Positions 17,623-49,854 of a DNA stretch of 64,000 bases are shown in pieces. The DNA comes from an uncultured Methanosarcinales archaeon (GTDB lineage: Archaea; Nanobdellota; Nanobdellia; Woesearchaeales; UBA583), in NCBI GenBank assembly GCA_964621065.1, contig CAZULG010000001.1, positions 11,082 through 75,081 on the forward strand, in the 5' to 3' direction. The notes under the pieces are model-generated. The model made no database searches and was not told the DNA's origin. It was given only the letters and a program-made list of their open reading frames with translations. The translations under genes were made by a program, and so were the position numbers. Every line of letters begins with the position of its first letter. Positions within the stretch are counted from its first letter, which is position 1.

Positions 17623-18588
17623 TTATTCTAAGTCTTCTTCATCAAATCCTTTTACATTACTTTGATTTAATAAATTTACTTTTGTGGACTCTATTTCATC
17701 TATTTCATCCTGAGATTTGTATTCCTTAACTTCATACTTAGGAGAACTGATAATTTTCAATTCTCCTGTGATTTTATTTTTATCAATTTCTCTCCCTGTA
17801 ATTTCATATTTTAAAATGACTTCTCCTTCCTTCTCACATTTAACATAAATTTCAGGAAATCTTGTTGGAAAATGTTGATCTGCTTCTTCACACCAGTACT
17901 GAATGCGATTATTTGAACTAAGAAATACATTTTCACTAGGCTCAATTTTAGAATAAGACTTAATTTCAGGAAATTGGTTTTTATAAATATTAGGATACTC
18001 TCTAATAAAATTAAGTTTGTTTGATATACTTTCAAAGGTGATTCTTACATCTTCAACTCTTATATTTCCTAAATTATTAAGTTTAATTTTAAAAGGTAGG
18101 AATTCTTCCTCAATTTCCTTCAAAGCTTCTTCTTCAATTTGAGTTGGACCTTGGAAGAAATTAAATTTTCCTGATATTATAGAAGATAGAGATGAGCTTG
18201 GAAGACTTATCTTTTTTAATTCCTCTTTTTCTTCTTGAGTTAAGTCATCTTCTTTTTCATCTTTTATGAGTTTTCGTTTAGTAATTGTTGAATTTATTTC
18301 TATTTCTTTCAAATCATTATCAAATACTACATCTAATTTTGGTTTATTATCTTCAAAATGTTTAATTTTGTCAAGTTCTTCCTTCCAAACCTTGTAGGAT
18401 GAATATATTAAAGCTAAAACAAAAAAAATGACTGTTATAATAAAAATATACTTATCTGAAAGATTTACTCCAATTTTTAATGAAAAATCAAAATATGTAT
18501 TAACTAAACCTAAAATAGTTGGTATAATACCTATAACAGTAACCCAATTAGAAAATATTTTCTTCAAATAATATATTAAATCATTCAT
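17623..18588 (-). CDS. Uncharacterised protein with two N-terminal TM helices and a long charged cytoplasmic domain
   Basis: TM1 WVTVIGIIPTILGLV and TM2 IFIITVIFFVLALIY; the rest is Glu/Lys-rich; the start overlaps the hsdS stop by 8 nt. Confidence 0.35.
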   Translation of the reverse strand: MNDLIYYLKKIFSNWVTVIGIIPTILGLVNTYFDFSLKIGVNLSDKYIFIITVIFFVLALIYSSYKVWKEELDKIKHFEDNKPKLDVVFDNDLKEIEINSTITKRKLIKDEKEDDLTQEEKEELKKISLPSSSLSSIISGKFNFFQGPTQIEEEALKEIEEEFLPFKIKLNNLGNIRVEDVRITFESISNKLNFIREYPNIYKNQFPEIKSYSKIEPSENVFLSSNNRIQYWCEEADQHFPTRFPEIYVKCEKEGEVILKYEITGREIDKNKITGELKIISSPKYEVKEYKSQDEIDEIESTKVNLLNQSNVKGFDEEDLE

Positions 18589-21363: not shown

Positions 21364-21444
21364 TTTTCTTATTAATATTTATTGCTTATTTTATTAGTAA
21401 CTGTTTTTCCTATTAATATAAAACACCATTCTTTATTAGTAAGA

Positions 21445-22944
21445 CTAAATTTTAAATCCCAATCCTTCTAGATTCTTCTTGATCTCTTCTTCTAACTCAT
21501 CAGATTTTTTAAACTGCTCAGATAACTCATTAACCAATCTCCTCATTTTATCTTCATATGGCTCACTATCCTCCTCTTCATCTTTTACACCAACATATCT
21601 TCCTGGGGTCAGTACAAAATCTTGCTTAGAAACTTCATCAATGCTCACTGATTTACAAAATCCTTTAATATCTTCATAGTCTTGTGAATTTTGCCAACTA
21701 TGCACCGTTTGAGAAATATAGGAAATCTCATCAGAAGACAACTCTCTTAATCTTCTATTAATCATCTCTCCCATATCACGACAATCTACAAAGAGTATCT
21801 CATTTGTTCTCTTCTTATCTCTATTCAAGAACCACAAACATGCAGGAATTCCTGTGTTATAAAATAACTTATCAGGCAATGCAACAATACACTCAACTAA
21901 ATCATCTTTAATGATTTTCTTTCTAATCTCACCTTCTCCAGCAGTATTTGAAGACATAGAACCATTTGATAATACAAAACCAGCTTTTCCTTTTTGAGAT
22001 AAATGATAAATAAAATGTTGAACCCACGCATAATTTGCATTTCCATTCGGAGGCATACCATACACCCATCGAGGATCCTCTTGTAATCTATTAGCCCCCC
22101 AATCTGAAATATTAAACGGAGGATTTGCAATAATAAAATCAGCTTTCAAAGACGAATGTTGATTAAAATGAAAACTATCATCAGCTCTCTCTCCTAAATC
22201 ATGATCTAATCCTCGAATTGCTAAATTCATTTTACACAATTTCCAAGTAGTAGGATTACTTTCTTGACCATATATTGACAAATCTCCAACTCTTCCACCA
22301 TGAGCCTCCACAAATTTCTCACTCATTACAAACATTCCTCCACTTCCACACGCAGGATCATAAATTTTCCCCTCATAGGGTTCTAAAATCTCAACTAAAA
22401 GTTGAACAACGCTATCAGGAGTATAAAACTCTCCTCCGCCCTTTCCCTCAGCTGATGCGAATTTTCCAATAAAGTATTCATAAATTCTTCCCAAAATATC
22501 TTTACTCTCTTCATACGATTTTCCAGAATCAATTGAATGAATCAAATCAACAACTTCTCCAAGAACAACCTTATTCAACTCAGGTCTTCCATAATTTCGA
22601 GGCAATACATTTCTAAGTGTCTTATTATCCTTCTCAATTGAAATCATAGCATTATCGATAACTTCTCCAATCTCAGGAGTTTTTGCCTTCTCAACAATAT
22701 TTGACCATCTCGCATCTTTAGGAACAAAAAAGACATGATGAGCGAGATACTCATCCTTATCTTCAGGATCTGCATATTCTTCAGTTTTAATTCTCTCATA
22801 AATATTCTCAAAGGAATCAGAAATAAATTTTAAAAATATTAAACCCAAAATAACATGCTTATACTCAGAAGCATCCATATTATTTCTCAACTTATCAGCT
22901 GCAGCCCATAATTTAGCTTCCAATTTTGAATTTTCTTCAACCAT
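21445..22944 (-). CDS. hsdM: Type I restriction-modification methyltransferase subunit HsdM
   Basis: N6-adenine MTase motifs DPACGSGGMF (motif I) and IANPPFN (motif IV), plus the HsdM N-terminal domain. Confidence 0.9.
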   Translation of the reverse strand: MVEENSKLEAKLWAAADKLRNNMDASEYKHVILGLIFLKFISDSFENIYERIKTEEYADPEDKDEYLAHHVFFVPKDARWSNIVEKAKTPEIGEVIDNAMISIEKDNKTLRNVLPRNYGRPELNKVVLGEVVDLIHSIDSGKSYEESKDILGRIYEYFIGKFASAEGKGGGEFYTPDSVVQLLVEILEPYEGKIYDPACGSGGMFVMSEKFVEAHGGRVGDLSIYGQESNPTTWKLCKMNLAIRGLDHDLGERADDSFHFNQHSSLKADFIIANPPFNISDWGANRLQEDPRWVYGMPPNGNANYAWVQHFIYHLSQKGKAGFVLSNGSMSSNTAGEGEIRKKIIKDDLVECIVALPDKLFYNTGIPACLWFLNRDKKRTNEILFVDCRDMGEMINRRLRELSSDEISYISQTVHSWQNSQDYEDIKGFCKSVSIDEVSKQDFVLTPGRYVGVKDEEEDSEPYEDKMRRLVNELSEQFKKSDELEEEIKKNLEGLGFKI

Positions 22945-25890: not shown

Positions 25891-27357
25891 TCATTCTTTT
25901 TTGTAAATGATAAACCCATTAGCAAATCTTTTATCATCTTTTATAACAAATCCTTGTTGTTCGATTTTCTCTCGAATATCATCTGCCTTTGAAAAGTTCT
26001 TCTCCTCTTTTGCACTCTTCCTCTTCTGAGCAAGTTCTTGAATTTCTTGTGGGATTGAGGATGTAATTTTTGTCTCATCAATGAGTCCAAGAACTCTATC
26101 TATCGTATAAAAATACTCATACACTTTTTTAATATCATCTTGATGAATACTACCAAGTGAGTTTACAAATGAGATAATTGAATACACATTCTTCAATGCT
26201 TTTGCAGTGTTTAAATCATCACAAATCGACTCATTAAATTCCCTCAAATTCTTCTCAAGTTCTTTATGAAGAGATTCATTTTCTCTATCATTGAATGCTT
26301 TAAATTGTAGCTCATATAAAAAATAATGAATCTTATTCAAATTTTGCTGCGCAGCATCAAGTGCTTCAAATGAAATATCTCCTGATTTTCGATAATGTGA
26401 TTGCAATAGTAATAATCGATACGATAAAGCAGAATAGCCTTTTTCTTCTAGATCTGAGATTAAATATACATTTCCCAATGATTTAGACATTTTCTCTCCT
26501 GCAAATGTAATATGACCATTGTGCATCCAAAACGTAACATCTTTAATGCAATGTGAACATGCATTTTGTGCAATCTCATTTTCATGGTGAATCGGAATAT
26601 GATCAATACCTCCTGTGTGAATATCAATATACTCTCCTAAATATTTATACCCCATGGCTGAACACTCAATGTGCCATCCTGGAAATCCAACTCCCCATTT
26701 TGAATCCCATTTCATTGCGTGGTGTTCATGTTTACCACTTGCAAATTTCCACAGAGCAAAATCTTGAGGATTACGTTTTTCAGAATTCACATCAATTCTC
26801 ACACCTACTTCTTTTTCATCCAATTTTTGTCCACTTAATTGACCATAGTCTTTATACTTTGACACGTCAAAATACACACCATCACTTGTTGTATATGTCA
26901 CTCCCTCTACTTCAAGTTTTTCAATCATTTCAAGCTGTTCTTGAATGTGTTCAGTTGCTTTAGGCATAACACTTGGAAGTTGAATATGTAGTTTTTCTAA
27001 ATCTTGTAAATATACATTAGTATAGAACTGAGCAATTTCAAGAGGTGTTTTTTTCTCACTTTTTGCAGCTCTCATCATTTTATCATCCCCATCATCTCCC
27101 AATTCATCATCATCAGTTAAATGACCAACATCAGTAATATTTTGAACAGAGTATAAATTATATCCCGCGTATGTAATCACTCTTCTTAAAATATCCCAAC
27201 TCAGCGCTGCTTTTAAGTTTCCAATATGTTGATACGAATAAACAGTTGGTCCACACGAGTAAATTTTCACAAGTTCAGGATTATGAGGTTGAAATACTTC
27301 AACGCTTCGAGTTTTTGTATTATAAAATTGTAATTGTAATTTTGGTTGCTTTGTCAT
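25891..27357 (-). CDS. cysS: Cysteinyl-tRNA synthetase
   Basis: CGPTVYSYQHIGN (HIGH) and KMSKSLGN motifs; Cys-tRNA synthetase zinc ligands. Confidence 0.9.
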   Translation of the reverse strand: MTKQPKLQLQFYNTKTRSVEVFQPHNPELVKIYSCGPTVYSYQHIGNLKAALSWDILRRVITYAGYNLYSVQNITDVGHLTDDDELGDDGDDKMMRAAKSEKKTPLEIAQFYTNVYLQDLEKLHIQLPSVMPKATEHIQEQLEMIEKLEVEGVTYTTSDGVYFDVSKYKDYGQLSGQKLDEKEVGVRIDVNSEKRNPQDFALWKFASGKHEHHAMKWDSKWGVGFPGWHIECSAMGYKYLGEYIDIHTGGIDHIPIHHENEIAQNACSHCIKDVTFWMHNGHITFAGEKMSKSLGNVYLISDLEEKGYSALSYRLLLLQSHYRKSGDISFEALDAAQQNLNKIHYFLYELQFKAFNDRENESLHKELEKNLREFNESICDDLNTAKALKNVYSIISFVNSLGSIHQDDIKKVYEYFYTIDRVLGLIDETKITSSIPQEIQELAQKRKSAKEEKNFSKADDIREKIEQQGFVIKDDKRFANGFIIYKKE

Positions 27358-27638
27358 TTTTTATTATTTTTTTATTATGTGAAATCTCAAATTAAGATAT
27401 TAATATATTTATTTGTTATTTTTAATCAATCAAGTTATTTTATAACTAATTGATTAAGTTATCTTTTAAATTTTTATAGAGAAATAATAGTTACAAACAA
27501 AACGCTTTTGTGCTACCAATGTAGGAGATTTTACTTAATTGAGTAATCATATTCTAGTATGTTGTAAATTATTTAAAAAACTATGTGAAAAATTGAAACT
27601 ACAGATAAGTTTAATAATACCATATTTCATATAATTGT

Positions 27639-27836
27639 ATGGAACAAAGTAAAAAAGTTACAATTCTTTATACAAATTGGAAAGGAGAAACTGCTCAAAG
27701 AACAATTATTCCTCAATCAATTGAGTTTACTTCAAATCAGTGGCATACTCAAGAGCAATGGATTTTAACTGCATGGGATGTAGAAAAGAAAAATTATAGA
27801 CATTTTCCAATGAAGGATATCAAAAAATGGTCTTAA
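27639..27836 (+). CDS. Small WYL-like domain protein
   Basis: VTILYTNWKGETAQRTIIPQSIEF...WILTAWDVEKKNYRHFPMKDIKKW follows the WYL-domain beta-barrel consensus. Confidence 0.3.
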   Translation: MEQSKKVTILYTNWKGETAQRTIIPQSIEFTSNQWHTQEQWILTAWDVEKKNYRHFPMKDIKKWS

Positions 27837-27901
27837 TCAGTTTAATATTCTCAAAAAGCCTTTGATTTTTGTTGGATATAAAGAAGTGAAAATGAATCAA
27901 G

Positions 27902-28168
27902 TTAATATACTTTTCCTCTAAAATTAGCAGTTTTTACCCAAATTATGTTTTCTTTTTTGAGTAATTGAAAAATTACTCTTACATCTCCTATCCTTAAACG
28001 ATAAAATTCTTGATTCTTTTTTATATTTTGCATCTTTTTAATATCTAAATCTAATTTTTTTGAACTTTTAAAGTGTTTAAGTTGTTGAATTTTTAACTTA
28101 ATTTCATCGTAGTTTTCAAGAGTATATAAAAAATTATCTACGCTTTTCTTAACCTTTAGAATATACAT
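27902..28168 (-). CDS. RelE/ParE family toxin
   Basis: C-terminus YRLRIGDVRVIFQLLKKENIIWVKTANFRGKVY. Confidence 0.55.
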   Translation of the reverse strand: MYILKVKKSVDNFLYTLENYDEIKLKIQQLKHFKSSKKLDLDIKKMQNIKKNQEFYRLRIGDVRVIFQLLKKENIIWVKTANFRGKVY

Positions 28169-28176
28169 TTTTAGTA

Positions 28177-28350
28177 CTCTACACTATCTTGCTCATCAAA
28201 TTCTTCATACAAAGAGTCTTTATGTAGTTTTTCTAATTCTTCTTGTTCTTGAATAGAAATTTCTTCGTAGTCATTTAATTCCTCTCTCACTGCTTTTTTG
28301 ATAAGGGAGAATAATTCGTCTTTACTAATAGTAATCATCTCAGTTGTCAT
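28177..28350 (-). CDS. Putative antitoxin, ~57 aa, below the ORF-track cutoff
   Basis: MTTEMITISKDELFSLIKKAVREELNDYEE... lies immediately upstream of the toxin, separated by a few nt; acidic C-terminus. End coordinate approximate. Confidence 0.35.
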
Positions 28351-28480
28351 ATGTATTATAAGGATTTAAAATTTAAATACTTTTCTAAGATATATGCAAA
28401 AAATAACTATTAATACGCTCAAGACTACAAATACAGTCAATGAAAATGTAAATCAGCTTGAATGTAATGATATTTTTTTA

Positions 28481-28726
28481 TTATTTATCTTTGTGATATA
28501 TATCTAAAAACAAAATTATCAGTTCATCTTCAATATACTCGTAAGAAATTCTAAATGGTTTAGCATAGACTTCTCTAGTTCCTCTTCTAGAATATCTCAT
28601 TGGTTTTCCAATATGAGGATTTTCAATTATTTTGTTTATTTGTTTCAAGATTGCTTTTTGATTATTTGAGTCTAATTTTTGAAATATTTTATCAAACCTT
28701 TTATCATATTCTACATTAATCTTCAT
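28481..28726 (-). CDS. RelE/ParE (YoeB-like) family toxin
   Basis: GKPMRYSRRGTREVYAKPFRISYEYIEDELIILFLDIYHKDK. Confidence 0.5.
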   Translation of the reverse strand: MKINVEYDKRFDKIFQKLDSNNQKAILKQINKIIENPHIGKPMRYSRRGTREVYAKPFRISYEYIEDELIILFLDIYHKDK

Positions 28727-28973
28727 CTTTAATCATAGATTCTAAATGTTTAACAAACTCTTTTGCTCTCATTTTCGTGAACTCTCCTCTCCCATGTGCT
28801 TGATACGCTTTTTCAGTTCTCTGTGCAAATTCTAAATCTTCTTGTTCTTGTTCAATCATTTCCTTAATCATCTCCTTAATTGCAAGATTTTTGCTCTTTA
28901 TTCCTCGTTGAGCTTTAAATACATTAAGAAATTTATTTTCTTCTTCAGTTAAATTAATAATCGCTTGCACCAT
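28716..28973 (-). CDS. Antitoxin partner, overlapping the toxin start by 11 nt
   Basis: 85-aa charged protein directly upstream of and overlapping the RelE-like gene. Confidence 0.45.
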   Translation of the reverse strand: MVQAIINLTEEENKFLNVFKAQRGIKSKNLAIKEMIKEMIEQEQEDLEFAQRTEKAYQAHGRGEFTKMRAKEFVKHLESMIKDED

Positions 28974-29049
28974 TTTATAATAAAATATAATATTTTATAA
29001 TATATAAATGTATTGGAGGATTAAAGAATTGAAAAAAAATAGAGAAGGT

Positions 29050-30390
29050 TTAATTAATAATCTCAAAATTTTTGTAATTAGAGTAAACTATTGGAGAGGG
29101 TAAATTTGAGTAATTAAAGACTAGTTGGATTTCTTTTGCACTATTTGGTTGAATTGTAATATTGCTGACATTTTTTATCAATTTTTTCCCCGTAATAGAA
29201 TCAAATCCTATCCTCTGAGGATCACCTTCTGATACAAATAAAGAAAAGTTTGTGATTTGAATAGTTTCTGTATCATTAAAATTTTCTATGACAGATTTTG
29301 CAAGCCATGTAACATTTGTATCAATTGAATTAGGATTTGGAACACCTATAATTTGTTTTTCTACTTCTATCACAATAGAAGGATGTTTTGTATCTAAGAC
29401 CTTTTTTTTGGTTTCGTTAAATAACTCTTGTAAGTCACTTATTCTTTCATCAATAATGTTATTATCTGTTGGAATATCATCACAATAGGTTTGAGTGGAT
29501 TGTATTGAATTTTGTATATTGATTAGACTACTTGGATATAAAATAGAATTATTCAAGTTTATCTCTACGAAGTCTATTTTTGAAGAACAGTAATCTACCA
29601 TTTCTTGAATTTCTGCTTTTCTCTCTTTTTCTTTTTCTTCCTCAAGTAATTCTTCTTTTATCTCATCCTTTATGTCATTTTTAAGTTCGTCAATATCGAT
29701 ATTTTCACTTAGTTCTAATTTTTCATCAAGCATATTTTCTGTATTAATTGTAACATCACTGTAATCACGATAATCAGTATCAAACTTATTAGCACACTTT
29801 GATTTCACATCCTCTAAACTCTTAATATAATTTGTATAATCAGAGTTTGTAATGTTGTCTTCATTTTCAACATCAGAATTCAAATTTTCTATATCGTTTA
29901 TACAGCTACTTGAAATTGATTCATCAAGATTTAATTTTTCATCTTCTAATTTTATAATAATATCATCCACTCTTTCATCAAAATTGTCTGAATAACTATC
30001 AGTATTTTCAAAATCAGAATTAAACGAAGTCTCACAAGTATCTATAACTGAATTTATTTGAGATTCTATTTCTGAGATTTTTTCAAATTCATTATTGTTA
30101 ATTTTTTGATTTGACTTTAAAATTAAATTGTTGCAGACTTTTTCAAATATCATATATTCAATTTGTAGAGTATTTATTGTTTCTCCATTGTCATTATTAC
30201 TATCATTACTACTTATATTTAGATTATCAATTCTACTAGAAATATTTCTAATCTCTTGCATAAGTTCTTCATTTTCTCTCTCTAAGTAGTCGATATGTTC
30301 ATCCTGTGAAAAATTATCTGATAATGTTGAACATCCACTGAAAATAAAAATAAGAAAACTAAGAATTAAGATATTAAAAAACCTACTCAT
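29050..30390 (-). CDS. Secreted acidic coiled-coil protein, lipoprotein-like
   Basis: Signal peptide ending FIFSGCS (lipobox-like), then a highly acidic Asp/Glu/Asn-rich coiled-coil and a Cys-poor beta-rich C-terminus. Confidence 0.4.
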   Translation of the reverse strand: MSRFFNILILSFLIFIFSGCSTLSDNFSQDEHIDYLERENEELMQEIRNISSRIDNLNISSNDSNNDNGETINTLQIEYMIFEKVCNNLILKSNQKINNNEFEKISEIESQINSVIDTCETSFNSDFENTDSYSDNFDERVDDIIIKLEDEKLNLDESISSSCINDIENLNSDVENEDNITNSDYTNYIKSLEDVKSKCANKFDTDYRDYSDVTINTENMLDEKLELSENIDIDELKNDIKDEIKEELLEEEKEKERKAEIQEMVDYCSSKIDFVEINLNNSILYPSSLINIQNSIQSTQTYCDDIPTDNNIIDERISDLQELFNETKKKVLDTKHPSIVIEVEKQIIGVPNPNSIDTNVTWLAKSVIENFNDTETIQITNFSLFVSEGDPQRIGFDSITGKKLIKNVSNITIQPNSAKEIQLVFNYSNLPSPIVYSNYKNFEIIN

Positions 30391-30439: not shown

Positions 30440-30821
30440 AGAAGTATTCTAGCAACTTCGTTGCTAGTATTAATTCAAGCTGCGAAGCAGCTTAGTCTAC
30501 GAATAATAATATACTTCCTCAGAAGTTATCACTTCCGAACCTTGTGAAAGGAGACATTCACTTTGTTCAATCTCCTGATTATTTTCAAGCTCCTAAGTTC
30601 AAGCTGCGAAGCAGCTTAGTCTACGAATAATAATATTCTACGGATTGTCTCTGCTCATTGTCTTTAACAGAGTGCTTCTTATTAATTCTCGGTCGTTTTG
30701 TATGTTCTTCTCATCCAGCTTTTTTTACACCGTTCGTTTTCAACTCACTCAAAAAAAGTTGTGCAAAAAAACTGCTCTCGCTACACTCAAGCCCCTAAGT
30801 TCAAGCAACGAAGTTGCTTAA
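30440..30821. repeat. Tandemly reiterated hairpin units downstream of ABCE1, including a duplicated copy of the ABCE1 3' coding end
   Basis: Hairpins with GAA/TTC triloops at 30450-30466, 30477-30493, 30601-30617 and 30804-30818. Segment 30474-30512 is near-identical to 30598-30636. Segment 30624-30712 is ~95% identical to the true ABCE1 end 30824-30913. Confidence 0.6.
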
Positions 30822-32576
30822 CTAAGAATAATAATATTCTCCGGATTGTCTCTGCTCATTGTCTTTAACAGAATGCTTCTTATTAATTCTCGGTCGTTTT
30901 GTATGCTCTTCACGCCTAAACGTAATATCAACTCCTTTTAAGAAATGATTCATCCCATCTCGCATCCCACTAGGAGAGTTAGCAACTCCTCTAATACTTG
31001 GCTCTCCATCAAATACCATCAATCTGTGTGACAAATAATCCATAAAAATTAAGTCATGATCAATCACAAAACACGCTTTCTCTTTAAGTTCAATAAAATT
31101 TTTAATCACTTTTGCAACCACAAGTCTATCCTCTACGTCTAAAAACGCAGTTGGTTCATCAAGTAAATACACCTGAGCGTCTTCCAATAAACACCGAGCA
31201 ATAGCAAAACGCTGTAACTCTCCCCCTGATAATTCATTAATTTGTTTCTCCTCTAAATTGTGGATTTTTAACGGGTCTAACACATACAATTTATAGAACG
31301 AATCAGTATAATTATTCATCGCACCCAGAACAGACATCACTAAATCATCTTGCTTCTCAATTAACTGCTCTTTATATGAAATCACTTTCCCATCAAGACC
31401 AACTTCATTAACATGCTTCATAAATGTTGATTTTCCAAGAGCATTTCTACCAATAATTCCAATAATCTCTCCTTTTGAAATATGACCTGCTTGAATCTCA
31501 ACTTGAAAATCTCCTCGCTTAACAATTTCTTGAGGCCAACTTACATATGCAGATCTTACTTGCTCATCTAACACACTCTCTTTATTAAACGAAATTGGTT
31601 TATCTCGAAACTGAATATTCTCATCTTTTGAGTACCCTTCTAAATACTCATTCATTCCCTGACGCGCATTTTTAATATTTGTCAACTTTCCATATACACT
31701 TGGCTGACCATACATTAAATGAATATTATCAATTAAAAAATCTAAAATTACCAAATCGTGCTCAACCACTAACGCTGATTTTTCGCCAACTACTTCTTTA
31801 ATAATTTGAGCAGTATTCAATCGCTCATACACATCCAAATAGTTTGTCACTTCATCTAATACATAAAAATTTGCATTCTCTTTCAATAAACACGCACAAA
31901 TTGCAACACGTTGCAGTTCTCCTCCAGACAAGTGTGAAATGTCACGCTCAAGTATTTGCTCAACATTTAAACTCTTCGCTCGCGCTTTAACTTTTTCTTC
32001 GTTACTCTCAACTCTGTGTAGTAAATTTTTTACAACTCCTTTAAATTTTTGAGGAATTTGAATGATTTGTTGTGGTTTAAACGCAACTGTAATATCTTGG
32101 TGCTGCAAAGATGTGAAATATTGTTGCATAATTGTTCCTTTATATTGACCAATAAGTGCTTTAAAATACTCTTCTTTTGTCTCATATGTATTTTCAACAT
32201 CTCCAAAATTTGCTTGAATAAGACCTGCTAAAATTGAAATCACTGTTGACTTTCCAATTCCATTTTTCCCCAAAATACCAACAATTTTGCCATCTTCAAC
32301 ATAAGGTAGATTAAACACACGAAACCCATTTTTACCATATTGATGAATAGGAGGAGTTTTATCTTCATCGGGTAAATTAATAATTGAAATCGCATGAGGG
32401 GCAGCTTTGACGCAAATCCCACACCCTATACATAATACTTCATCAATTAAAAGCTTCTCTCCTTCAAAATACATACAATCAGCTCCTCTACGATTTACAG
32501 GGCAGAGTGATTGAATATGTTTTTTTTCACTCATAACTTTTAATTTTTCATTATTTATAACAGCAAGTCTTGGCAT
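30822..32576 (-). CDS. abcE1: ABCE1 / RNase L inhibitor ribosome-recycling ATPase
   Basis: N-terminal 4Fe-4S cluster motifs (CPVNRRGADC...CIGCGICVKAAP) and two ABC ATPase domains (GKNGIGKST; LSGGELQRV x2). Confidence 0.9.
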   Translation of the reverse strand: MPRLAVINNEKLKVMSEKKHIQSLCPVNRRGADCMYFEGEKLLIDEVLCIGCGICVKAAPHAISIINLPDEDKTPPIHQYGKNGFRVFNLPYVEDGKIVGILGKNGIGKSTVISILAGLIQANFGDVENTYETKEEYFKALIGQYKGTIMQQYFTSLQHQDITVAFKPQQIIQIPQKFKGVVKNLLHRVESNEEKVKARAKSLNVEQILERDISHLSGGELQRVAICACLLKENANFYVLDEVTNYLDVYERLNTAQIIKEVVGEKSALVVEHDLVILDFLIDNIHLMYGQPSVYGKLTNIKNARQGMNEYLEGYSKDENIQFRDKPISFNKESVLDEQVRSAYVSWPQEIVKRGDFQVEIQAGHISKGEIIGIIGRNALGKSTFMKHVNEVGLDGKVISYKEQLIEKQDDLVMSVLGAMNNYTDSFYKLYVLDPLKIHNLEEKQINELSGGELQRFAIARCLLEDAQVYLLDEPTAFLDVEDRLVVAKVIKNFIELKEKACFVIDHDLIFMDYLSHRLMVFDGEPSIRGVANSPSGMRDGMNHFLKGVDITFRREEHTKRPRINKKHSVKDNEQRQSGEYYYS

Positions 32577-33265: not shown

Positions 33266-36200
33266 ATGAATTATCAATTTCTATTTTTAAAAAAATTGTA
33301 TCTTTTTTTTGCATTTTTTGTTCTCTTCTCAATCATCTTAGCGCCTCAGAGTTATGCTATTTGTGAAGTAACATCATTTATTAATCAAACTACTCCATCT
33401 CCTCAGGATAGATCTTGCTCTTCAGATGATGGGTATGTTATTACAGATATTACAGGAGATATTTACTGTAGTAATGACCCATTCAATCCTGGAGATTTTG
33501 AGTTTAAAAAAATAACAATTGAAAATTCAAATATTAACTTTATCAATTGTAACTTTAAATATGCAAGTGGAGCATCTGAAGAAATCGATATTTCAAATTC
33601 AACAATTGCTGGATATGGACTAAAGTTTGAATCACCATCTTCTATTGAAAATAATTTTATTTCAGAATTTACAAATGATTCAACAAATTCATATTATGGT
33701 TTTGAGAATAATTTATTCGATATTTACAAAGGAAATGACTCAACACAAGTGTTTGCTCAAGGTGTTGATATTAAAAGAGGTTTTTCAATTCAAAATACTT
33801 CAAGTGGAAATTTTACGAGTATTTCTAAATTTAATACATTAAAAACAATTCCCGATGTAATTGGAAGTGTTGATATGTATCATGTGTATGTGCCATTTCA
33901 ATCGATAACTAATAGTAGTGCAAATAATGATTTTGATAAATCATACAACATTGAATTTGATTTTGATAGTTCAATTGACTCATTGAATTTCTCTTATTCT
34001 AATTTTTCCTCCCTTGATGTTATTCAAGAAGTTCAGATTCCAAAAAACTATCCTCCAACACCCCTCATTGCTCAATATATGTATAATCCTACAACAAATT
34101 ATCAAGAAATTGAAATTAATTTTGATGAATATGTTCAATCGTTAAATATAACAATACTTGATTCAACAAATCAAGAAGTTTTTAATTATTCAGGTGGAGG
34201 ATTAAAAAATATCAGTTTAGAAAATCTTCCTTTTGATTTAAATGAGAGTGAAGAATATGAAGTTCAATTTGAATACATTGATTATTTTTCAAACGCAGAT
34301 TTGAAAAGTATTATTTTAAAATCACCAAGTATTAATAACACAGAGTTTGAAGATGAGTTTTCATTAAATTATATATTTAACCAATCATCAACTGCAACGT
34401 TAGATGCAACGCTGCAAATTGAACCAACAGCAATCTCAACTCCACTCTCCTCACTAGAATTCTCGTCAACTTCACTCTCAAGCCCATTATTTAATATTAC
34501 AAATTCAACTCAAATAACATTTAACTCAAGCTCAATATTTACAATTCCAACAAACTCAAGTTTCTATCAACCTCACAAAGGAGTTATTTCATCTTCTGCG
34601 TTTAATTCATCTCCTGTTGTACAACTCGATAATTCTTCATTTGCTCAATCAACACGTAATAGAGATGGAAATTTTCAATATTCAATTTCTACTCCTAGAA
34701 ATGTATTTGAGATTTTAAACAATACTAAAATCACACCTCAATTTCCTGAAGATATTTATTTTAATAAATCATTTACACTTGAAGCATTATATCTTCAAAC
34801 AAGTGATAATTCACTCATATCTCCCTCCTCGTGTACTATTTACTACAACACACTAACCCCAACACAAACCGTTCAAAATATGACCTTTCAACCATCTCTT
34901 TCAACATTTAATACTTCAATATTATTCAGAGAGTTTTACCCACTCCAACAACCCTTAACTATTCAATGTTCAAATGAACTTGGACTTGAGAATGTATCTA
35001 ATACATTTACAATTAATCAAACAACCCAACCAATTGATAATTTTACAAGTGATATCTCTTACAATCCTAAAAGCCCAGGATCATTTACAACAATTGAAAA
35101 AGAGCTCAATATTAGTATTTCATCTCAAGGTTCTCAAAATATTAACTCTAATTTTGATAATGAATACTCAGTTATGATTTCTCGAATTGAATATTTAAGA
35201 GAGGGATGGAATACGAGCAGAAATTTAACAAATTGGATCAATATTGGAAAAAATGAAGAAGCAAGATTTTCGCATAGCGATCTGAACTATTCTAAATCAA
35301 TTAGACTTGATTTAGAAAATTCTTCAACTCAACAATTAAATAATAGTTTCATATTTAGAGATATTAAAGATGAAAATGGAGATGCAATTTCTTTATTTGT
35401 TATTGTAAAATCTTGTGTACCACCGTATTCAAATGAAGCATGTGAATTTTTCTCTAACTCATCTCAATTTTATATCTTTCAAGACTCAACTCCTCCACTG
35501 CTTTATGATTTTGCGCTTAGAAATATGACCAATGATGATAATTTTTACATAAGAATTAATGTTGATGATTTAGAAAGTGATATTGAATACGCAAATATGA
35601 GATTTTCAAATGCACATAACACCTCAGACTCATTCTCCCTTCCACTCACAAATTACATTAGTGAAGAACTTGGAATTCAAAATGCACCATTAAATAGTAT
35701 CTCATCAATTGAAGAAGGAATTTTATATAATCTCTCAATTAATACTTCAAATAACAATAACATTGCAAATGAAAATCTTGATATTCAAAACCAACTGCTT
35801 CTTGATAACCAGCCGCCTAGTAATTCAAGTCTTCAATTACTCGATACATCTTTATACAATACTTCACATAATAGATTTTACACTAACAATGGAACTCAAG
35901 TTAAGTTTAATATAACATCTGGATTTGATAATTTTATTGGATATCAAAATAATAGTGGAATTAGTCACTACAATCTTACACTATATTCTATGTCAAATGA
36001 TTGCTCAATTCGAGAAAATCAATCAAACTCAATATCAAACAATATTAGTGATAATCAAACCCAAATTATAACTCTCAATATGACTCAAGACACGTGTAAT
36101 GAGCTTGAACTTGTTGTGTTTGATAACGCTGGAAATCAAGAAGTTGTGGATACACTTGAAATAGTTGTTGATACAACCCCTCCAACATTTAATAATGTAG

Positions 36201-39200
36201 ATGGACAACTCAAAATATCACCTATAGGCTCTAACAGCAAATTTTTTAACAGAGATAATCTCAACAAAGACTCAGTTTTATTTAGTTATCAATACGATAT
36301 AAGTGATGATTTAACACCTTTAAAGGAAATCACAGTTAATTTGTATGAGAAACTTAATACAACTGGAGCATCTTCTAATTTAGTTAAACAACTTAATGTC
36401 TCAACTGATTCAAAACAAATTGATTTTACGCTTAGTAATTATTCATTTAAAGATAATCGAAAGTATAAAATTGGAATTGTTGCAGAAAATTTTGCTCAAC
36501 TGCAAACTCCTCAAATTGAATCTTCTGAAATATTTCTAGGATTAACATCCTCTCTCAATATTACACCAAAAGGATTTTTACGAGAAGATGATAATTCATT
36601 TTATTACTCACCACAATTTCTCAATGGAGCTAATTATCCACTTGAATTTAATAATAATAATCAAGCAGATGTAAGTTGTTCTCTTAATACAATTATTCAA
36701 AATTATTCTCTAAGTGATACAAATCAATGCAGTTTAAGTCCAGATAGTTCAATTCTCTCTTGTCAAGCATCTCAAAGTGATATTGAGCAATACGAATACG
36801 TTATTGCAAATTGTTTCATCAGTAATGTTGAAGAAGATGTTCAAGAATATTTCTCTAAAAATATCTCATTTACAACTCTTAATCAAACAAGTAGAGCAGA
36901 TATTGATTTTCAAGTTATCCCAAATAGAACATTTTTCTTTGATAATGAGACAATTGGATTTAATTTTACAACAAAAAATGATAGAGATGATGCTACATAT
37001 TTATTAGAGCAAACACTCAACTCCCCCACAAATAATATTAGTTCAATGAAATTTAATCAAAAAGGACAAAATTTAACACGAGATAATTTGAGTAATTTTA
37101 ACACCTCAATCACACCAACTGCGTCTCAATCTTTTTTCATATTTAATAATTCATATAATAAAACTTCACCTGTGCTCAATTTTACATATAATGGACTCAT
37201 TCCAATATATGAATTTAAATTTAATAATTCTATAAATCAATCACAAATTAACTTGTTAATAGAAAATTTTTTAAGTGAAAATCAAAATGTTGAAGATAAA
37301 CTAACTACTAATTTAACAGTTAATCTCACAGCACCTATCACTAATAGTTTTACTCTTAACACTTCAAATTTTAATAGAAAATTAGACTTTGATACAAGCA
37401 TTATTGAACACGAATTTATGATTCCTAATTTGAATAATAATCAACTCACATTTGAAGCATTAATTGATCAGAGTAATAAATTTGAGGATATTTATTTGAA
37501 AAATTTAAGCACTTACACGTCTTACTTAAACTATAGCACTTCTAATACATTTAATTTTGAATTTTTTGATTATTTCTCATTTGATAATAATGTGACATTC
37601 TCATTCAATTCAACTGATGAGCCAGATGAGCTGCAACTAAACTCATCTCAAAGTTTTAATTTGACACTTGATCCAACTCAAATTAACAAAATTAATTTAT
37701 CTAAATTCATCATTAACAACAATACACAAATTCCTAGCAGTCTCTATTCTATCTCAACACAAATCTCAAATACTCCTTCAACGCTTGAATACAGTTTAAA
37801 CAATAATTCTAAAAATACAGTTGAAGAAGAGTTAATGCTCTATTTAAATGATGGAATAACTAATTCTGAGCAAACAATTGATGTAGTTATGAGTGATAAT
37901 TTTGGATCCTCAGTTTCATTTGAATTAAATTTAAATTGGAATTTAAGTCAAATTAATAGCAGTAGTTATGATATGTCTGAATTCAATACAAATATTTCAA
38001 ATTTCATTACAAAAAAGCAATCATCTTGGTACATTGATTTTGGTGTGGAGCAGAATATAATCTCTCAAATCTCATTTGAAATCGAAAATTCAACAGTTGA
38101 ATATCCTCTCAATATAGATGGTAAAGTGAATGATTCAATTTATACTCTTGCATTTACAAAACAAATTTATGATGAGCTCCATAACAAGTATTTCAATGAA
38201 GATGTTTATGAAGTAGATATCTCAACCACATACACAACTCCTTTTGATATTGAATTTACAGTTAATGATACAATAGAGTTTGATTTTGATGTGAATGAAA
38301 ATACTATTTCAGATAGATTTGACATAGATTTAGATAATAATGGTATTAATGATTTAATACAATCAATAATCTATAATAAAAGTCTTGTGTTCAATATTCC
38401 TACTTCAAATGTAGAAGAAACATTTAATCTTACAAATACGAGTTATTTTAATATCTCATCTGATGTATTTAATTCAAATATTATAATTTCATGGAATGAT
38501 AACAACTCAAATGTGTGGGACTTTTCTTCAACGTATGTGAATATAGAAGAAGTTGAAATTGAAAATTTTAATAAAGTTGGTTCAAGAATGAGCATTGATA
38601 AGTTCCCTAAATTTGATTCAAAAAAATCAATTCAAGTTCCAAAAATTTCTCAAAATAGTGAGTTACAATATTGTATAGGAAATAACGAAAATCTTCAAAC
38701 TTCTAGTAGTTGTAGCGGTAGTGATGAATATCTTGTTGAGAGTTGTGACTCATCAATTGGTGGAGGAATTGAATGTGTTGAAGAGTCTAATAGCTTGACA
38801 TTTACAAATCTCTCATTTACAACTATTGAGACCATTTGCAGTTCTTGTGAAGAAAGTAATGATGACTCCTCTGATGATTCTTCTGGAAATGATAATGATG
38901 GAAGTTCTGGAGGAGGTTCTAGCAGTGGTGGCTCTTCAAGTGGTGGAGGCGGAGGAAGTTCTGGAGGAGGATTTGTAACACAACCCGATATTGAAGAAAA
39001 TAAATCAGATGAGGATGAATCTCAACAAGATGAAGAAAATGGTAGCAATAATGAACCCGAAGAAGTAGAAGAAGTTGATGAAAATGATACTCAAACAACT
39101 GAAGATTCTGATAATGAAAACAATAACAATAATGAAGAAAATCAAACAACTACTTCTGAAGAAAATGAACAAGAAAATGCTCAAGATGAAGTTCCCACTA

Positions 39201-39790
39201 CACCTGAAGAAGAGTCTTCAATGTCTACAATATTAATAGCAGCAGTAATTATTTTGCTACTAATAGTTGCTATTGTTGGTGTTTATTTATATCAACAAAA
39301 GAAGAAAAAGAAAAGAACATCAGCTCTTAGTGTTAAAAATTATAAACAACAAAGTAGCCTATCTAACGAAAAAACACAAAGACCTTTAACTTCTCTAACA
39401 CTTAGAGAAAGAGAAGAATTTTTAACTAAAATTGGGCCATTAATCTATAAAAAAACTCCGTTAAGTGTAATTGCAAAGAAATATAATATTTCTACTAAAA
39501 AAGATATTCAAGAACTATTAAATATGATATATGTAGACACATTTATTGAAAACATTAAAAGAGAACTTGAGAAAAAAACATTTATGCTTACTCCTCAAAT
39601 TATCTCAGAGTTGAAAAATACAAAGTGGTTTAATTCTCTCAATCCATGCTCTGACAATTCTTCATATTTAAGAGATTTAGGCTTTTTCATATCTCAATAC
39701 AAAATAACTCATGTGTTCAACTCAAATGAATTAAAAGAAATAATTACTGATTCTATTTATGAAGAAATATCATCTCAAAATGAAAACTAA
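33266..39790 (+). CDS. Giant (2174 aa) cell-surface protein: signal peptide, huge N/S/T-rich ectodomain, Ser/Gly and acidic stalk, one TM anchor, ~150-aa cytoplasmic tail
   Basis: N-terminal LFFAFFVLFSIILAPQSYA signal and hundreds of N-x-S/T sequons. Near the C-terminus GSSGGGSSSGGSSSGGGGGSSGGG then a poly-acidic stretch. TM ILIAAVIILLLIVAIVGVYLY is followed by a KKKKKR stop-transfer and a tail containing TPLSVIAKKYNISTKKDIQELL. Confidence 0.6.
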   Translation: MNYQFLFLKKLYLFFAFFVLFSIILAPQSYAICEVTSFINQTTPSPQDRSCSSDDGYVITDITGDIYCSNDPFNPGDFEFKKITIENSNINFINCNFKYASGASEEIDISNSTIAGYGLKFESPSSIENNFISEFTNDSTNSYYGFENNLFDIYKGNDSTQVFAQGVDIKRGFSIQNTSSGNFTSISKFNTLKTIPDVIGSVDMYHVYVPFQSITNSSANNDFDKSYNIEFDFDSSIDSLNFSYSNFSSLDVIQEVQIPKNYPPTPLIAQYMYNPTTNYQEIEINFDEYVQSLNITILDSTNQEVFNYSGGGLKNISLENLPFDLNESEEYEVQFEYIDYFSNADLKSIILKSPSINNTEFEDEFSLNYIFNQSSTATLDATLQIEPTAISTPLSSLEFSSTSLSSPLFNITNSTQITFNSSSIFTIPTNSSFYQPHKGVISSSAFNSSPVVQLDNSSFAQSTRNRDGNFQYSISTPRNVFEILNNTKITPQFPEDIYFNKSFTLEALYLQTSDNSLISPSSCTIYYNTLTPTQTVQNMTFQPSLSTFNTSILFREFYPLQQPLTIQCSNELGLENVSNTFTINQTTQPIDNFTSDISYNPKSPGSFTTIEKELNISISSQGSQNINSNFDNEYSVMISRIEYLREGWNTSRNLTNWINIGKNEEARFSHSDLNYSKSIRLDLENSSTQQLNNSFIFRDIKDENGDAISLFVIVKSCVPPYSNEACEFFSNSSQFYIFQDSTPPLLYDFALRNMTNDDNFYIRINVDDLESDIEYANMRFSNAHNTSDSFSLPLTNYISEELGIQNAPLNSISSIEEGILYNLSINTSNNNNIANENLDIQNQLLLDNQPPSNSSLQLLDTSLYNTSHNRFYTNNGTQVKFNITSGFDNFIGYQNNSGISHYNLTLYSMSNDCSIRENQSNSISNNISDNQTQIITLNMTQDTCNELELVVFDNAGNQEVVDTLEIVVDTTPPTFNNVDGQLKISPIGSNSKFFNRDNLNKDSVLFSYQYDISDDLTPLKEITVNLYEKLNTTGASSNLVKQLNVSTDSKQIDFTLSNYSFKDNRKYKIGIVAENFAQLQTPQIESSEIFLGLTSSLNITPKGFLREDDNSFYYSPQFLNGANYPLEFNNNNQADVSCSLNTIIQNYSLSDTNQCSLSPDSSILSCQASQSDIEQYEYVIANCFISNVEEDVQEYFSKNISFTTLNQTSRADIDFQVIPNRTFFFDNETIGFNFTTKNDRDDATYLLEQTLNSPTNNISSMKFNQKGQNLTRDNLSNFNTSITPTASQSFFIFNNSYNKTSPVLNFTYNGLIPIYEFKFNNSINQSQINLLIENFLSENQNVEDKLTTNLTVNLTAPITNSFTLNTSNFNRKLDFDTSIIEHEFMIPNLNNNQLTFEALIDQSNKFEDIYLKNLSTYTSYLNYSTSNTFNFEFFDYFSFDNNVTFSFNSTDEPDELQLNSSQSFNLTLDPTQINKINLSKFIINNNTQIPSSLYSISTQISNTPSTLEYSLNNNSKNTVEEELMLYLNDGITNSEQTIDVVMSDNFGSSVSFELNLNWNLSQINSSSYDMSEFNTNISNFITKKQSSWYIDFGVEQNIISQISFEIENSTVEYPLNIDGKVNDSIYTLAFTKQIYDELHNKYFNEDVYEVDISTTYTTPFDIEFTVNDTIEFDFDVNENTISDRFDIDLDNNGINDLIQSIIYNKSLVFNIPTSNVEETFNLTNTSYFNISSDVFNSNIIISWNDNNSNVWDFSSTYVNIEEVEIENFNKVGSRMSIDKFPKFDSKKSIQVPKISQNSELQYCIGNNENLQTSSSCSGSDEYLVESCDSSIGGGIECVEESNSLTFTNLSFTTIETICSSCEESNDDSSDDSSGNDNDGSSGGGSSSGGSSSGGGGGSSGGGFVTQPDIEENKSDEDESQQDEENGSNNEPEEVEEVDENDTQTTEDSDNENNNNNEENQTTTSEENEQENAQDEVPTTPEEESSMSTILIAAVIILLLIVAIVGVYLYQQKKKKKRTSALSVKNYKQQSSLSNEKTQRPLTSLTLREREEFLTKIGPLIYKKTPLSVIAKKYNISTKKDIQELLNMIYVDTFIENIKRELEKKTFMLTPQIISELKNTKWFNSLNPCSDNSSYLRDLGFFISQYKITHVFNSNELKEIITDSIYEEISSQNEN

Positions 39791-47439: not shown

Positions 47440-47591
47440 CAGCTTTTCAAAAAAACAAGGTCGCTCTTTTCAATCGTTCGTTGTATTAATCTTAAGATGA
47501 ATATTTGTGCAAAAAAATTGTTTTCGCTAAGCTCAAACTCCTAATTCTAGTAGCGAAACTACTAATATCTACTTCAAGTAACGAAGTTACT
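47440..47591. repeat. Conserved 3'-flanking element shared with the ABCE1 downstream region (30711-30820)
   Basis: ...CGTTCGTT...TTGTGCAAAAAAAYTGYTYTCGCTA..CTCAA.C.CCTAA.TTC...AGYAACGAAGTTRCT is shared; the terminal hairpin 47577-47591 spans the DP2 stop codon; a second hairpin TAGTAGCGAAACTACTA lies at ~47550-47566. Confidence 0.5.
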
Positions 47592-49854
47592 TTCCAAAAT
47601 AATCTCCAAGTCCTTTTTGTTTCTCAAGCTCCTTTCCAAATACTCCTTCCATTCTCAAATTTACAAGTTCTAAACTCTCAACAATGTATGGATCAACTCG
47701 AAAATCTTTTGTGATTTTAAATGATGGAGCTAAATATTTTTTAATTGAACCTTCATGAATTGTGAAATTAATAGAAGTTGAATAACAATTAGAACATCTC
47801 CCATTCAATGGAGGCCTTCTGTAAATAGTATTACAACTTGTACATCGAAAACTCTGCATTCCAAATTTTCTCAAATTTCCTTTAATGTCTTTCATAAAAT
47901 GCTTATCAATCACTAGCTCTCCCACTTTATTCTCATCAACAGCTCGAATTTTTCGCCCAATTTCTAATTGTTCTGATAATTTTTCTGCCATTGAAGGAAG
48001 TGTTTTATATGAAGAACACAAAATCGTATCATTCATATCATCAGTATCATGCGTAAAAAAATATCCTAAATATTCCTCATCTTTAATTTCTTTCCCTATT
48101 CTATTCTCAACATGCTCAATTTTTACACTTTTAGGAGGAGCGTATTCTCTACAAGCTTTATAAAAATTAAGAGGATAAAATGGAACAATATCCATCCCAT
48201 GAACCTCATCATCAATCTGATCCAAATACAAATGAGAAGTTAATACTAATGATACATCCATTGTCTTAGAACCTCTTCTATTTGGTAAAAATTCACGTGA
48301 CCCGTTTAATAACCCATCTAATAAAAGCATCACTCCGTTCTCATCTCCATCTAAATTACGCCTCTGAGCAGCGTGCCAAACAGGGTGAGAAAAACAACCT
48401 TGAGATTTTGAATATCCAATAATTCTCCCCGTAATACCTGCAGAAGTATGAGGAGCAAGCCCAATTATTATATGCCCAATTGTATCTTCTTTTGATTTAA
48501 AATTATAGTATGGTTGTTCTAAATAAATTTTCTCAAGCAACTCATCAATGAATTGTCCTGTTTTTACAATAATATCACTTGCTTTTTCTTCAAACCCTTC
48601 ATCACAATCAGGAAGTATAACATCTTGAGGAAAAATTTCAACAATTTGATTCTCATCTGTAAGTTCCTCTCCTTTGTAATCATGTGTGTATCCCATCTCT
48701 TTGAGTTTATCAATTGATGTTAAAATTTCTTTTGGCTTAAAGTGCGTAATTCCCATCTCAATCATATCATATCGAATCGTACCATCTTTATTGACATACA
48801 AATCATACTTCTCTCTCAAAAACGCTTTTTCTAAAATTTCAATTGATTTATGCTCATTTGCAGTTCCACGGATTCCTTTCACTATTTTAGGAAGTTGAGT
48901 AAGTTTCAAATTCTCTCTCACTTGTTTAATATAAGGCTCTAAATCTAAAGACATACGTTTGTATTGAACTGCTAATTCATCCTCTTTATTTACTCGAGCA
49001 CCTGTGTATCTATTAAAATATTGAGGAGTACATACTCCTCCACAATATACACATTTTGGATATACACATTCCTCCCCGCAACTCTGACACTCCATTAATC
49101 GAAATTCTCCACTGACCTCACCACCTTCATACGCCTCAATAATATTTCTCATTCGATTTTGTATAACATCTGAGCTGATTTCATCATCTCCAAATCGTCT
49201 TTCAATTTGAACTGACTTACCATTTCCAATTGTAAATAATCCTTGTGGACGACCATCTAGTTTTCTCAATTTTGCCTTCTCAGGACGCCCCATTCTTGCA
49301 CCAATATATGTTCCTGCTTTATCACGAATCTCAATTGATGAATACACATTAATAATTTCAAGCATGGACTTATTCAAATGTTCTCTACATAATTGCTCAA
49401 TATTTGAAAAGTGTGATATATATTTCTCAACTAATGATTGACTTTTAATTTCTCTCTCATCCTTAACATCAATCCACTCTAAAATACCACAATTAGATAT
49501 AAAAGCTAGAAATGAGTTGTCTTGAAACAAAATGGTATCAACTCCCTCTTCTTTTCCCATCCATTTGTGCTCAATTCCTAAATGCTCAAATTTATCTTTA
49601 TTACGTGTTTTAATTCCAAATAACTTTAACTCCTTATCAACATACAAATTTTGAAGTTCTCCAAACACATCAACCCCACGTTGAGGACTTAACTCATTAA
49701 AATAAAAAATATAGTGTGGATGCAGGGATACATCAAATTTTTGTGAGAGCATAATTGCATCCTTTAAAGATGGTTTAGAATAGAGAGGATTAGAAACATA
49801 CTGCTCGTATTTACTTTTGAGCGTTGAATTCAAAATGTAAAAAGAAAAATCCAT
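47587..49854 (-). CDS. DNA polymerase II (PolD) large subunit DP2, central and C-terminal portion only
   Basis: IGARMGRPEKAKLRKL, zinc fingers CQSCGEECVYPKCVYCGG and CTSCNTIYRRPPLNGRCSNC, catalytic region GLAPHTSAGITGRIIG...AAQRRNLDGDENGVMLLLDGLLN. At 755 aa it is far shorter than canonical DP2, and a stop codon lies 2 codons upstream of the ATG. Confidence 0.85.
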   Translation of the reverse strand: MDFSFYILNSTLKSKYEQYVSNPLYSKPSLKDAIMLSQKFDVSLHPHYIFYFNELSPQRGVDVFGELQNLYVDKELKLFGIKTRNKDKFEHLGIEHKWMGKEEGVDTILFQDNSFLAFISNCGILEWIDVKDEREIKSQSLVEKYISHFSNIEQLCREHLNKSMLEIINVYSSIEIRDKAGTYIGARMGRPEKAKLRKLDGRPQGLFTIGNGKSVQIERRFGDDEISSDVIQNRMRNIIEAYEGGEVSGEFRLMECQSCGEECVYPKCVYCGGVCTPQYFNRYTGARVNKEDELAVQYKRMSLDLEPYIKQVRENLKLTQLPKIVKGIRGTANEHKSIEILEKAFLREKYDLYVNKDGTIRYDMIEMGITHFKPKEILTSIDKLKEMGYTHDYKGEELTDENQIVEIFPQDVILPDCDEGFEEKASDIIVKTGQFIDELLEKIYLEQPYYNFKSKEDTIGHIIIGLAPHTSAGITGRIIGYSKSQGCFSHPVWHAAQRRNLDGDENGVMLLLDGLLNGSREFLPNRRGSKTMDVSLVLTSHLYLDQIDDEVHGMDIVPFYPLNFYKACREYAPPKSVKIEHVENRIGKEIKDEEYLGYFFTHDTDDMNDTILCSSYKTLPSMAEKLSEQLEIGRKIRAVDENKVGELVIDKHFMKDIKGNLRKFGMQSFRCTSCNTIYRRPPLNGRCSNCYSTSINFTIHEGSIKKYLAPSFKITKDFRVDPYIVESLELVNLRMEGVFGKELEKQKGLGDYFGK

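Follow-up and report, generated by a model that had tools for sequence, protein, structure and literature searches.

The spacer downstream of the ABCE1 (RLI) gene in the window, i.e., the whole 64,000-nt stretch of DNA analyzed here, carries additional copies of the 3' end of this gene, interspersed with hairpins and non-coding modules. We favor the reading that the spacer is a stack of displaced ABCE1 ends, which would stem from repeated one-sided recombination with DNA of relatives beside a hypervariable island, and we hold it about equally probable that this reading is right or wrong. The spacer looks like neither a new gene nor a cargo-bearing element. That a gene terminus here bears the footprint of recombination had been proposed by a first-pass annotation of this DNA and is accepted.

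The ABCE1 gene (30822..32576, minus strand, ORF of 584 aa) encodes a product 100% identical to the ribosome biogenesis/translation initiation ATPase RLI of a Candidatus Nanoarchaeia MAG. Its stop (30822) is separated by 431 bp from the start (30390) of the next gene (29050..30390, minus strand), which encodes an acidic protein of 446 aa with an N-terminal hydrophobic segment and is the first gene of a variable interval between ABCE1 and CysRS. The repeats have as their template the final 90 nt of ABCE1 (30822-30911, stop included). Read in the sense of ABCE1, the modules follow each other in the order unit A, Y, unit B, X, unit C, and hairpin D. Unit A (30787..30911, minus strand) consists of the live gene end with its stop, hairpin hpA (30803-30819, AAGCAAC-UUC-GUUGCUU) and the tail TTAGGGGCTTGA (30787-30798). 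The Y element, present here in a short form of 76 nt (30711..30786, minus strand), contains two T7 runs, as a direct reading of the sequence reveals, ACGAACG, and then A7-GCTGG. Unit B (126 nt, 30585..30710, minus strand) is a displaced gene-end copy composed of the last 29 codons and the stop of ABCE1 (30621-30710), hairpin hpB (30601-30617, AAGCUGC-UUC-GCAGCUU) and the tail TTAGGAGCTTGA (30585-30596). It is followed by the motif X of 70 nt, in which UUUCACAAGG connects two hairpins (30514..30583, minus strand), and by unit C (42 nt, 30474..30517, minus strand), a short third gene-end copy of about 19 nt plus stop, whose hairpin hpC (30477-30493) is identical to hpB. Hairpin D (30443..30467) lies on the plus strand and represents an inverted A-type end, TATTCT followed by AGCAAC-TTC-GTTGCT.

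Repeats and four triloop hairpins had been described for this spacer in the first pass, and their coordinates and identities are confirmed. The end of ABCE1 is truly duplicated: units A and B match at 96% over 90 nt (30822-30911 versus 30621-30710), and the match extends to 126 nt at 91% (30787-30911 versus 30585-30710). Units B and C match at 98% over 42 nt (30598-30639 versus 30474-30515) and are identical (100%) across 40 nt. No cargo separates the copies, as had also been claimed; only Y (76 nt) and X (70 nt) are found between them. An internal stop that had been read into copy B, on the other hand, was an error, as the change in question is GGA to GTA (Gly to Val) and the TAG is out of frame. 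All four hairpins are perfect, with GAA/TTC triloops and stems of 7-8 bp (30449-30467, 30477-30493, 30601-30617, and 30803-30819). Stems of at least 5 bp with such loops number 14 in the window versus 5.5 ± 2 in shuffles, and neither the 22-nt hairpin unit nor the 21-nt gene-end motif had a single chance match in 100 shuffles. The post-stop part of A and B is more diverged (7/36 differences) than the coding part (4/90; Fisher p=0.012), and the stems of hpA and hpB differ by two compensated changes, which together suggests a mosaic origin of the two units. Hairpins A and D are complementary in their arms (30804-30818 and 30451-30465, 15/15), and the resulting helix is present as a long-range pairing in the centroid fold of the spacer. 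The modules thereby form a nested A[B..C]D symmetry with D inverted, for which no model accounts. CTTGA closes every module junction. The possibility that X itself is a very old gene-end copy was rejected, since only its last 19-24 nt, belonging to unit C, match the gene end and the rest matches no better than shuffles. No tRNA or tmRNA was found in the spacer.

The window belongs to a DPANN archaeon of the Nanoarchaeota/Woesearchaeota type. Seven related species, which are Nanoarchaeota/Woesearchaeota, have an ABCE1 78-85% identical to that of the window and share the gene order giant protein, HIT, ABCE1, variable interval, CysRS. A neighbor-joining tree of ABCE1 has the topology ((L022,(L024,L023)),((L015,window),(L018,L002,L001))). 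The first-pass annotation had named a uniform single-copy arrangement in related genomes as an observation that would speak against it; the relatives compared reveal instead a patchwork of single-copy and independently duplicated states, in which each duplication-bearing genome has close relatives without a duplication. The arrangement is absent from the close relatives L001, L023, and L024, and a Y element followed by an ABCE1-end copy occurs in three genomes (window, L002, and L022). Copy B of the window begins at position -90, the L002 copy reaches from -135 to -51 and matches the resident gene at 98%, and in L022 two complete units are arranged in tandem, A-Y1-B-Y2 (155 nt at 74%, period 171). 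That the L002 copy continues in diverged form past -51 was considered and rejected as not significant. X, which is followed by the short C copy, was detected by nhmmer, among the window and the relatives compared, only in the window, L015-17, and L018-21; its matches are confined to ABCE1 3' flanks, it is kept in two species besides that of the window, and L015 and L018 have X plus C only. The C copies carry the Ser and stop codons of their own genome (TCG TAG, TCC TGA, and AGT TGA). The Y family comprises five copies according to nhmmer, two in the window (30705-30800 and 47441-47546), one in L002 and two in L022. They fall into two subfamilies that follow neither the host tree nor the locus: the Y of L002, located at ABCE1, is 70% identical to the second Y of the window, located at the gene for DNA polymerase PolD, versus 55% to the window's Y at ABCE1. 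In the window and the relatives compared, gene-end copies are the only near-identical local non-coding duplications. More distant ABCE1 loci, of about 60% identity, lack the modules and have a convergent gene directly adjoining the stop. L002 contains a 1042-nt tandem duplication (8162-9202 and 9198-10238, 90% identity) downstream of ABCE1.

The same modules recur in the window at PolD. Downstream of the DP2 gene (47587-49854, minus strand, 755 aa) a second module locus (47440..47592, minus strand) consists of a stop-embedded hairpin (47576-47592, AAGUAAC-UUC-GUUACUU), a second hairpin (47547-47565), TTAGGAGTTTGA (47533-47544) and a long-form Y (47440-47546), and it is devoid of a gene-end copy. 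Such a copy does exist in an L018-like species. There, a 13-nt stump of the PolD end comes first after the gene; a spacer of 83 nt, in which T7, a T-run, and A7 occur, separates it from a 45-nt PolD-end copy with its stop, and two extra genes lie beyond. This duplication is identical in six separate Logan assemblies (L031-L036). The likeness of the 83-nt spacer to Y is one of layout only, as a Y profile built without the L032 PolD spacer fails to detect it. The same layout with different boundaries is found in L002, L022, the window, and PolD of the L018-like species, with the joint directly after Y at ABCE1 and directly after the T/A-run spacer at PolD.

Several further observations concern these loci. 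The two extra genes of L031-L036 (231 and 394 aa, about 4920-6920 in L032 coordinates) lie between the PolD-end copy and EF-1beta, have no Pfam matches and are absent from the window and from L030. The PolD hairpin of L030 has a different, fully compensated stem (AAGCAGC-TTC-GCTGCTT). A C-UUC-G-loop hairpin is also located at or just past the stop of ThrRS (52116-54080; hairpin 52098-52110). Since this hairpin type follows PolD and ThrRS as well, it is not specific for ABCE1 and may be a genome-wide 3'-end signal. The DP2 of 755 aa comprises the central and catalytic domains, its closest relatives have 750-765 aa, and more distant Woesearchaeota have a DP2 of about 1180 aa with an N-terminal PF03833 domain. 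The gene upstream of DP2 encodes a V-ATPase AC39 subunit; DP2 thus seems to be split in this clade, with its N-terminal part elsewhere.

The divergence between resident and copied gene ends is of a coding type. Copies A and B of the window differ by three synonymous changes and one non-synonymous change with the frame intact, and copy B reads ...QRQSVEYYYS*, its frame being closed by a TGA directly upstream of the copy. The copy in L002 reveals one synonymous and no non-synonymous difference, the PolD copy three and one, and the L022 copy 17 and five (pS about 1, pN 0.08). In total, 24 of 31 differences over the four pairs are synonymous, which deviates from the neutral expectation of 0.20 (p=1e-11) and from the expectation of 0.40 for one constrained and one free copy (p=2.5e-5); this signal comes mainly from L022, the window's own pair contributing four differences. 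The reading frame is kept in all four copies, the peptides of copies A and B differ by 0-3 residues, and no gene lies between them. The second end of L022 has DNA only 72% identical to the resident end, but it encodes an intact 26-codon C-terminus whose peptide is identical in 25 of 26 residues to the live end in L024. Mostly synonymous divergence and intact frames indicate that the copies were working gene ends until recently, be it here or in a donor genome. For the present 3' ends, the signs of a foreign origin are only suggestive. In sliding windows, the last 90 nt of ABCE1 in L022 are closest to L001/L018 rather than to the sister L023, with a gap of about 6 nt, and the last 90 nt in L002 shift as well, both shifts being a matter of few nucleotides.

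Small ORFs and read-through translation of the spacer were rejected as explanations, given that the +1 frame through X is closed in L015 and the window and that an in-frame TGA precedes copy B. In L018 (5753-5864) a +1 frame starting within the ABCE1 stop (UCU UGA A) runs without interruption over 36 codons, crossing X and ending at the C-copy stop. This frame is probably due to chance, since it is closed in L015 and the window.

Slippage had been offered in the first pass as one origin of the repeats, and we consider such an origin unlikely, also in the wider form of a local tandem duplication that arises by slippage or unequal crossing-over within a terminator region rich in hairpins and is combined with gene conversion and deletion between copies. 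In its favor, L022 has a clean two-unit tandem array, the 40-nt identity of B and C and the C copies with codons of their own genome in L015 and L018 resemble concerted evolution, and loss of Y-B by recombination between A and B would yield exactly the arrangement of L015 and L018. However, the pattern of the window is U-Y-U-X and not U-Y-U-Y, and full units occur in L022 only; the L002 copy differs in its left boundary and in the subfamily of its Y. An untranslated copy should gather non-synonymous changes and frame breaks. The synonymous majority among the differences contradicts this, as does the second end of L022, which is without frame breaks at 28% divergence, a distance over which gene conversion is unable to act.

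The mechanism and the order of events that we infer for the displacement of gene ends would be as follows. DNA of a related strain would recombine with the resident chromosome such that one end is anchored by homology inside the conserved ABCE1 gene, while an illegitimate joint, a few dozen bases ahead of the resident stop codon, connects the other end. This would be an insertion-duplication by homology-facilitated illegitimate recombination, also termed 'C-terminal displacement'. Each event would install a new working end together with its own 3' flank, i.e., the stop-codon hairpin followed by Y or X, and would push the old end downstream, where its translation is lost. For the window at least two events would be required, leaving A as the working end, B as a young displaced end of 29 codons and C as an older stump of about six codons. 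The hairpins and T-runs would be the normal 3'-end signals of these genes, the former as RNA hairpins that include or abut the stop codon, the latter as archaeal oligo-T terminators. Archaeal RNA polymerase terminates at oligo-T tracts. Judging from its T-runs, Y probably holds the ABCE1 terminator; ABCE1 transcripts would thus end in Y, and B, X, and C would be relics beyond the transcript end.

Recombination of this type would explain why the distribution is patchy, why the boundaries vary, why the copies diverge as alleles do and why they lie next to variable islands, and it would likewise account for the lack of integrase, transposase, or reverse transcriptase domains and of viral, phage, or plasmid matches in the searches reported below. 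Some observations fit less smoothly. Hairpin D and the identity of B and C need extra steps such as inversion and gene conversion, and X, although conserved and structured, is without a role in the displacement of gene ends. Joints placed at random would not cluster directly behind Y, which may therefore be actively involved, and CTTGA at the junctions could be a recombination core instead of microhomology. To our knowledge, neither natural DNA uptake nor illegitimate recombination of the proposed type is documented for DPANN archaea.

Homology-facilitated illegitimate recombination is the proposed origin of the 'orphan' 3' ends of Rhs, CDI, and T6SS loci (PMC5361080, which cites Jackson et al. 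2009 and de Vries & Wackernagel 2002). As in these arrays, a full-length gene is followed by displaced 3' fragments in the same orientation that keep a conserved upstream stretch, the newest end is nearest to the gene, the fragments bear the mark of their former function, and the recombination hot spot adjoins variable genes. Along this line, the displaced fragments described here combine an intact frame with a synonymous excess, as past purifying selection predicts. Unlike in these arrays, a housekeeping gene is concerned, the peptides encoded by new and old ends are almost identical, and neither toxin/immunity cargo nor a new functional domain is present. Furthermore, the fragments are very small, with 6-45 codons, the host organisms are DPANN archaea and the mechanism is inferred.

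We also give a low probability to a tiny non-autonomous element, composed of Y and a gene-end copy serving as att site, that is moved in trans by a recombinase encoded elsewhere, with A and B as attL and attR and the single-copy relatives as empty sites. Integrative elements that target the 3' ends of tRNA or protein genes generate attL/attR duplications, and their integrase-less remnants are known as CIME-type elements. In the present case, likewise, att-type direct repeats containing the 3' end of the target gene flank inserted DNA (A/B and B/C) and regenerate the gene end, arrays form after successive events, and single-copy 'empty' sites exist in relatives. Direct repeats of a gene 3' end around a short insert are the classic attL/attR picture. 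The independence of the Y subfamilies from host tree and locus, the joint that is always at the Y end and the CTTGA recurring at junctions point in the same direction, and the coding-type divergence of the copies fits such an element as well as it fits displacement by recombination. On the other side, two unrelated target genes, ABCE1 and PolD, would demand two attachment specificities, the repeat length is highly variable (45, 85, and 90-126 nt), the 'element' would measure a mere 76-145 nt, with 67-145 nt of non-coding DNA between the repeats, and the L032 PolD spacer escapes the Y profile that was built without it.

Searches for a recombinase or a mobile relative were negative. None of the 51 window ORFs compared with Pfam (43 of them ≥120 aa; the scan left out three large ORFs at 33266-39790, 60324-61988, and 62546-63610) has an integrase, transposase, or reverse transcriptase domain. 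IMG/VR contains no ABCE1 C-terminal fragment, X core, or Y core, and phage and plasmid collections gave no match, all of these collections being poor in DPANN elements; no free or viral copy of Y, X, or an ABCE1-end fragment was found. On the far side of the island, near CysRS, no third att copy was detected with up to three mismatches allowed. The scar of an excised element, the other origin put forward in the first pass, is likewise not supported: no integrase domain occurs in the scanned ORFs, no relative has cargo between the repeats, and site-specific excision leaves one copy, not three. In a test for MITE-type elements, the T7 and A7 arms of Y can pair but fold no better than shuffles (z -0.1 to -1.2), the flanking repeats are variable (45-126 nt), and Y has two copies in 64 kb.

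Two further candidates were rejected. A diversity-generating retroelement has no RT domain in the scanned ORFs, and only one of the four A/B mismatches fits an A-to-N exchange; integron attC sites or a cassette array in the toxin-antitoxin-rich interval would require attC-like inverted repeats, and none were found between the genes. REP/BIME-type sequences are dispersed extragenic palindromes of bacteria. They share with the present case small covarying hairpins and modules in several 3' flanks per genome, sometimes in both orientations; unlike them, only five to six hairpins and two Y copies are present in 64 kb, the hairpin overlaps the stop, and no associated transposase was seen.

A rather improbable variant is that Y and the stop hairpin form an undescribed, cargo-less, non-coding '3'-end cassette' of DPANN archaea. 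Such a unit of 100-250 nt would contain a replacement for the last 15-45 codons of a conserved essential gene together with a terminator, and it would spread between genomes and genes by recombination, displacing the resident end each time. The proposal is based on the Y subfamilies that ignore host and locus, on the joints at the end of Y and on the common layout at ABCE1 and PolD.

It is very improbable that the copies are kept for a function as RNA, be it as decoy or antisense partner of the ABCE1 mRNA end or as a 3'UTR structure, formed by hairpin and X, that senses stalled ribosomes and mediates feedback. The stop-proximal hairpin covaries strongly. In its family (window A, B/C, and D, the PolD flank of the window, L001, and L018) 98% of the positions are paired, both sides are changed in four of seven pairs, none of 500 shuffles reached this value, and one G-U pair fits the sense strand. 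X keeps two stems by means of compensatory changes, helix 1 being 100% paired with three covarying pairs, and its G-U pairs agree with the sense strand of ABCE1. Taken as a whole, the spacer is better folded than its shuffles (z = -2.9), and as ABCE1 is a ribosome recycling factor, a sensor at its own stop is conceivable. However, the copies diverge in the manner of codons and not of an RNA, B, X, and C of the window lie beyond two T7 runs as seen from ABCE1, and the arrangement is missing in the close relatives L001, L023, and L024. Rfam 15 identifies only two tRNAs in the window, with best spacer matches at E about 1, and the hairpin type also occurs after PolD and ThrRS. Inspection by eye of the window, L002, and L022 revealed no conserved promoter-like sequence next to the copies on either strand; an antisense RNA against ABCE1, for which the TATA-like reverse complement of the EYYYS codons could have served, was rejected on this ground.

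An artefact of metagenome assembly, in which two strain alleles of the ABCE1 3' region were joined in tandem, is scarcely credible: the window and all relatives are indeed metagenome assemblies and A and B differ as alleles do, but structures of this type occur in four species from different projects and assemblers, comparable structures in the independent assemblies L002, L022, and L031-L036 (the PolD case being identical in six of them) make an assembly error unlikely, and no shared k-mer would cause a join from the end of Y into ABCE1 position -90.

If the displacement of gene ends by recombination is true, conserved housekeeping genes in small DPANN genomes would act as homology anchors for the entry of foreign DNA, and stacked gene ends would constitute a readable record of such entry events. 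The stacks would also be sequence-level evidence for frequent recombination among related, uncultured, episymbiotic archaea that feeds their variable islands. The kind of scar would be a known one, located here at housekeeping genes of DPANN archaea; the pattern is recurrent within a clade. In addition, the three conserved non-coding modules, i.e., the C-UUC-G-loop stop-codon hairpin, X, and Y, can now be searched for elsewhere and be tested as archaeal 3'-end signals.

The intervals downstream of both loci are variable. The content between ABCE1 and CysRS differs in every relative and consists of ParE toxin-antitoxin pairs, a WYL gene, a DDE transposase, or nothing, and the interval between PolD and EF1beta contains zero or two extra genes depending on the genome. 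In the window (25891-30390) the former comprises the 446-aa acidic protein, one ParE-type toxin pair, a WYL gene and a second pair of small adjacent ORFs without Pfam matches; in L015, L018, L023, and L024 it comprises other small genes, a DDE transposase, or nothing.

Elsewhere in the window, type I restriction-modification genes are found within 12621-22944 on the minus strand (HsdR 12621-15779, HsdS 18581-19915, and HsdM 21445-22944), interleaved with a DUF4411 gene, an M78 peptidase-like gene and a Schlafen/AlbA_2 gene, the latter containing the 12-nt tandem repeat TTTCTTGGGTAG five times (20079-20158). Four intergenic sites within 1.6 kb share a repeat of about 40 nt that has TTTTGATAGTTATTTTTAA as its core (2378-2415, 2466-2506, 2561-2604, and 3896-3933). 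The strongest hairpin of the window, a perfect 11-bp stem GTTCGTATAAT-ATAC-ATTATACGAAC (3405-3430), is located just past the ORF 3440-3811. An Orc1/Cdc6 gene (44355-45689, minus strand) lies about 2 kb from the cluster of TBP, EF-1beta, and PolD, and a replication origin may be located near it.
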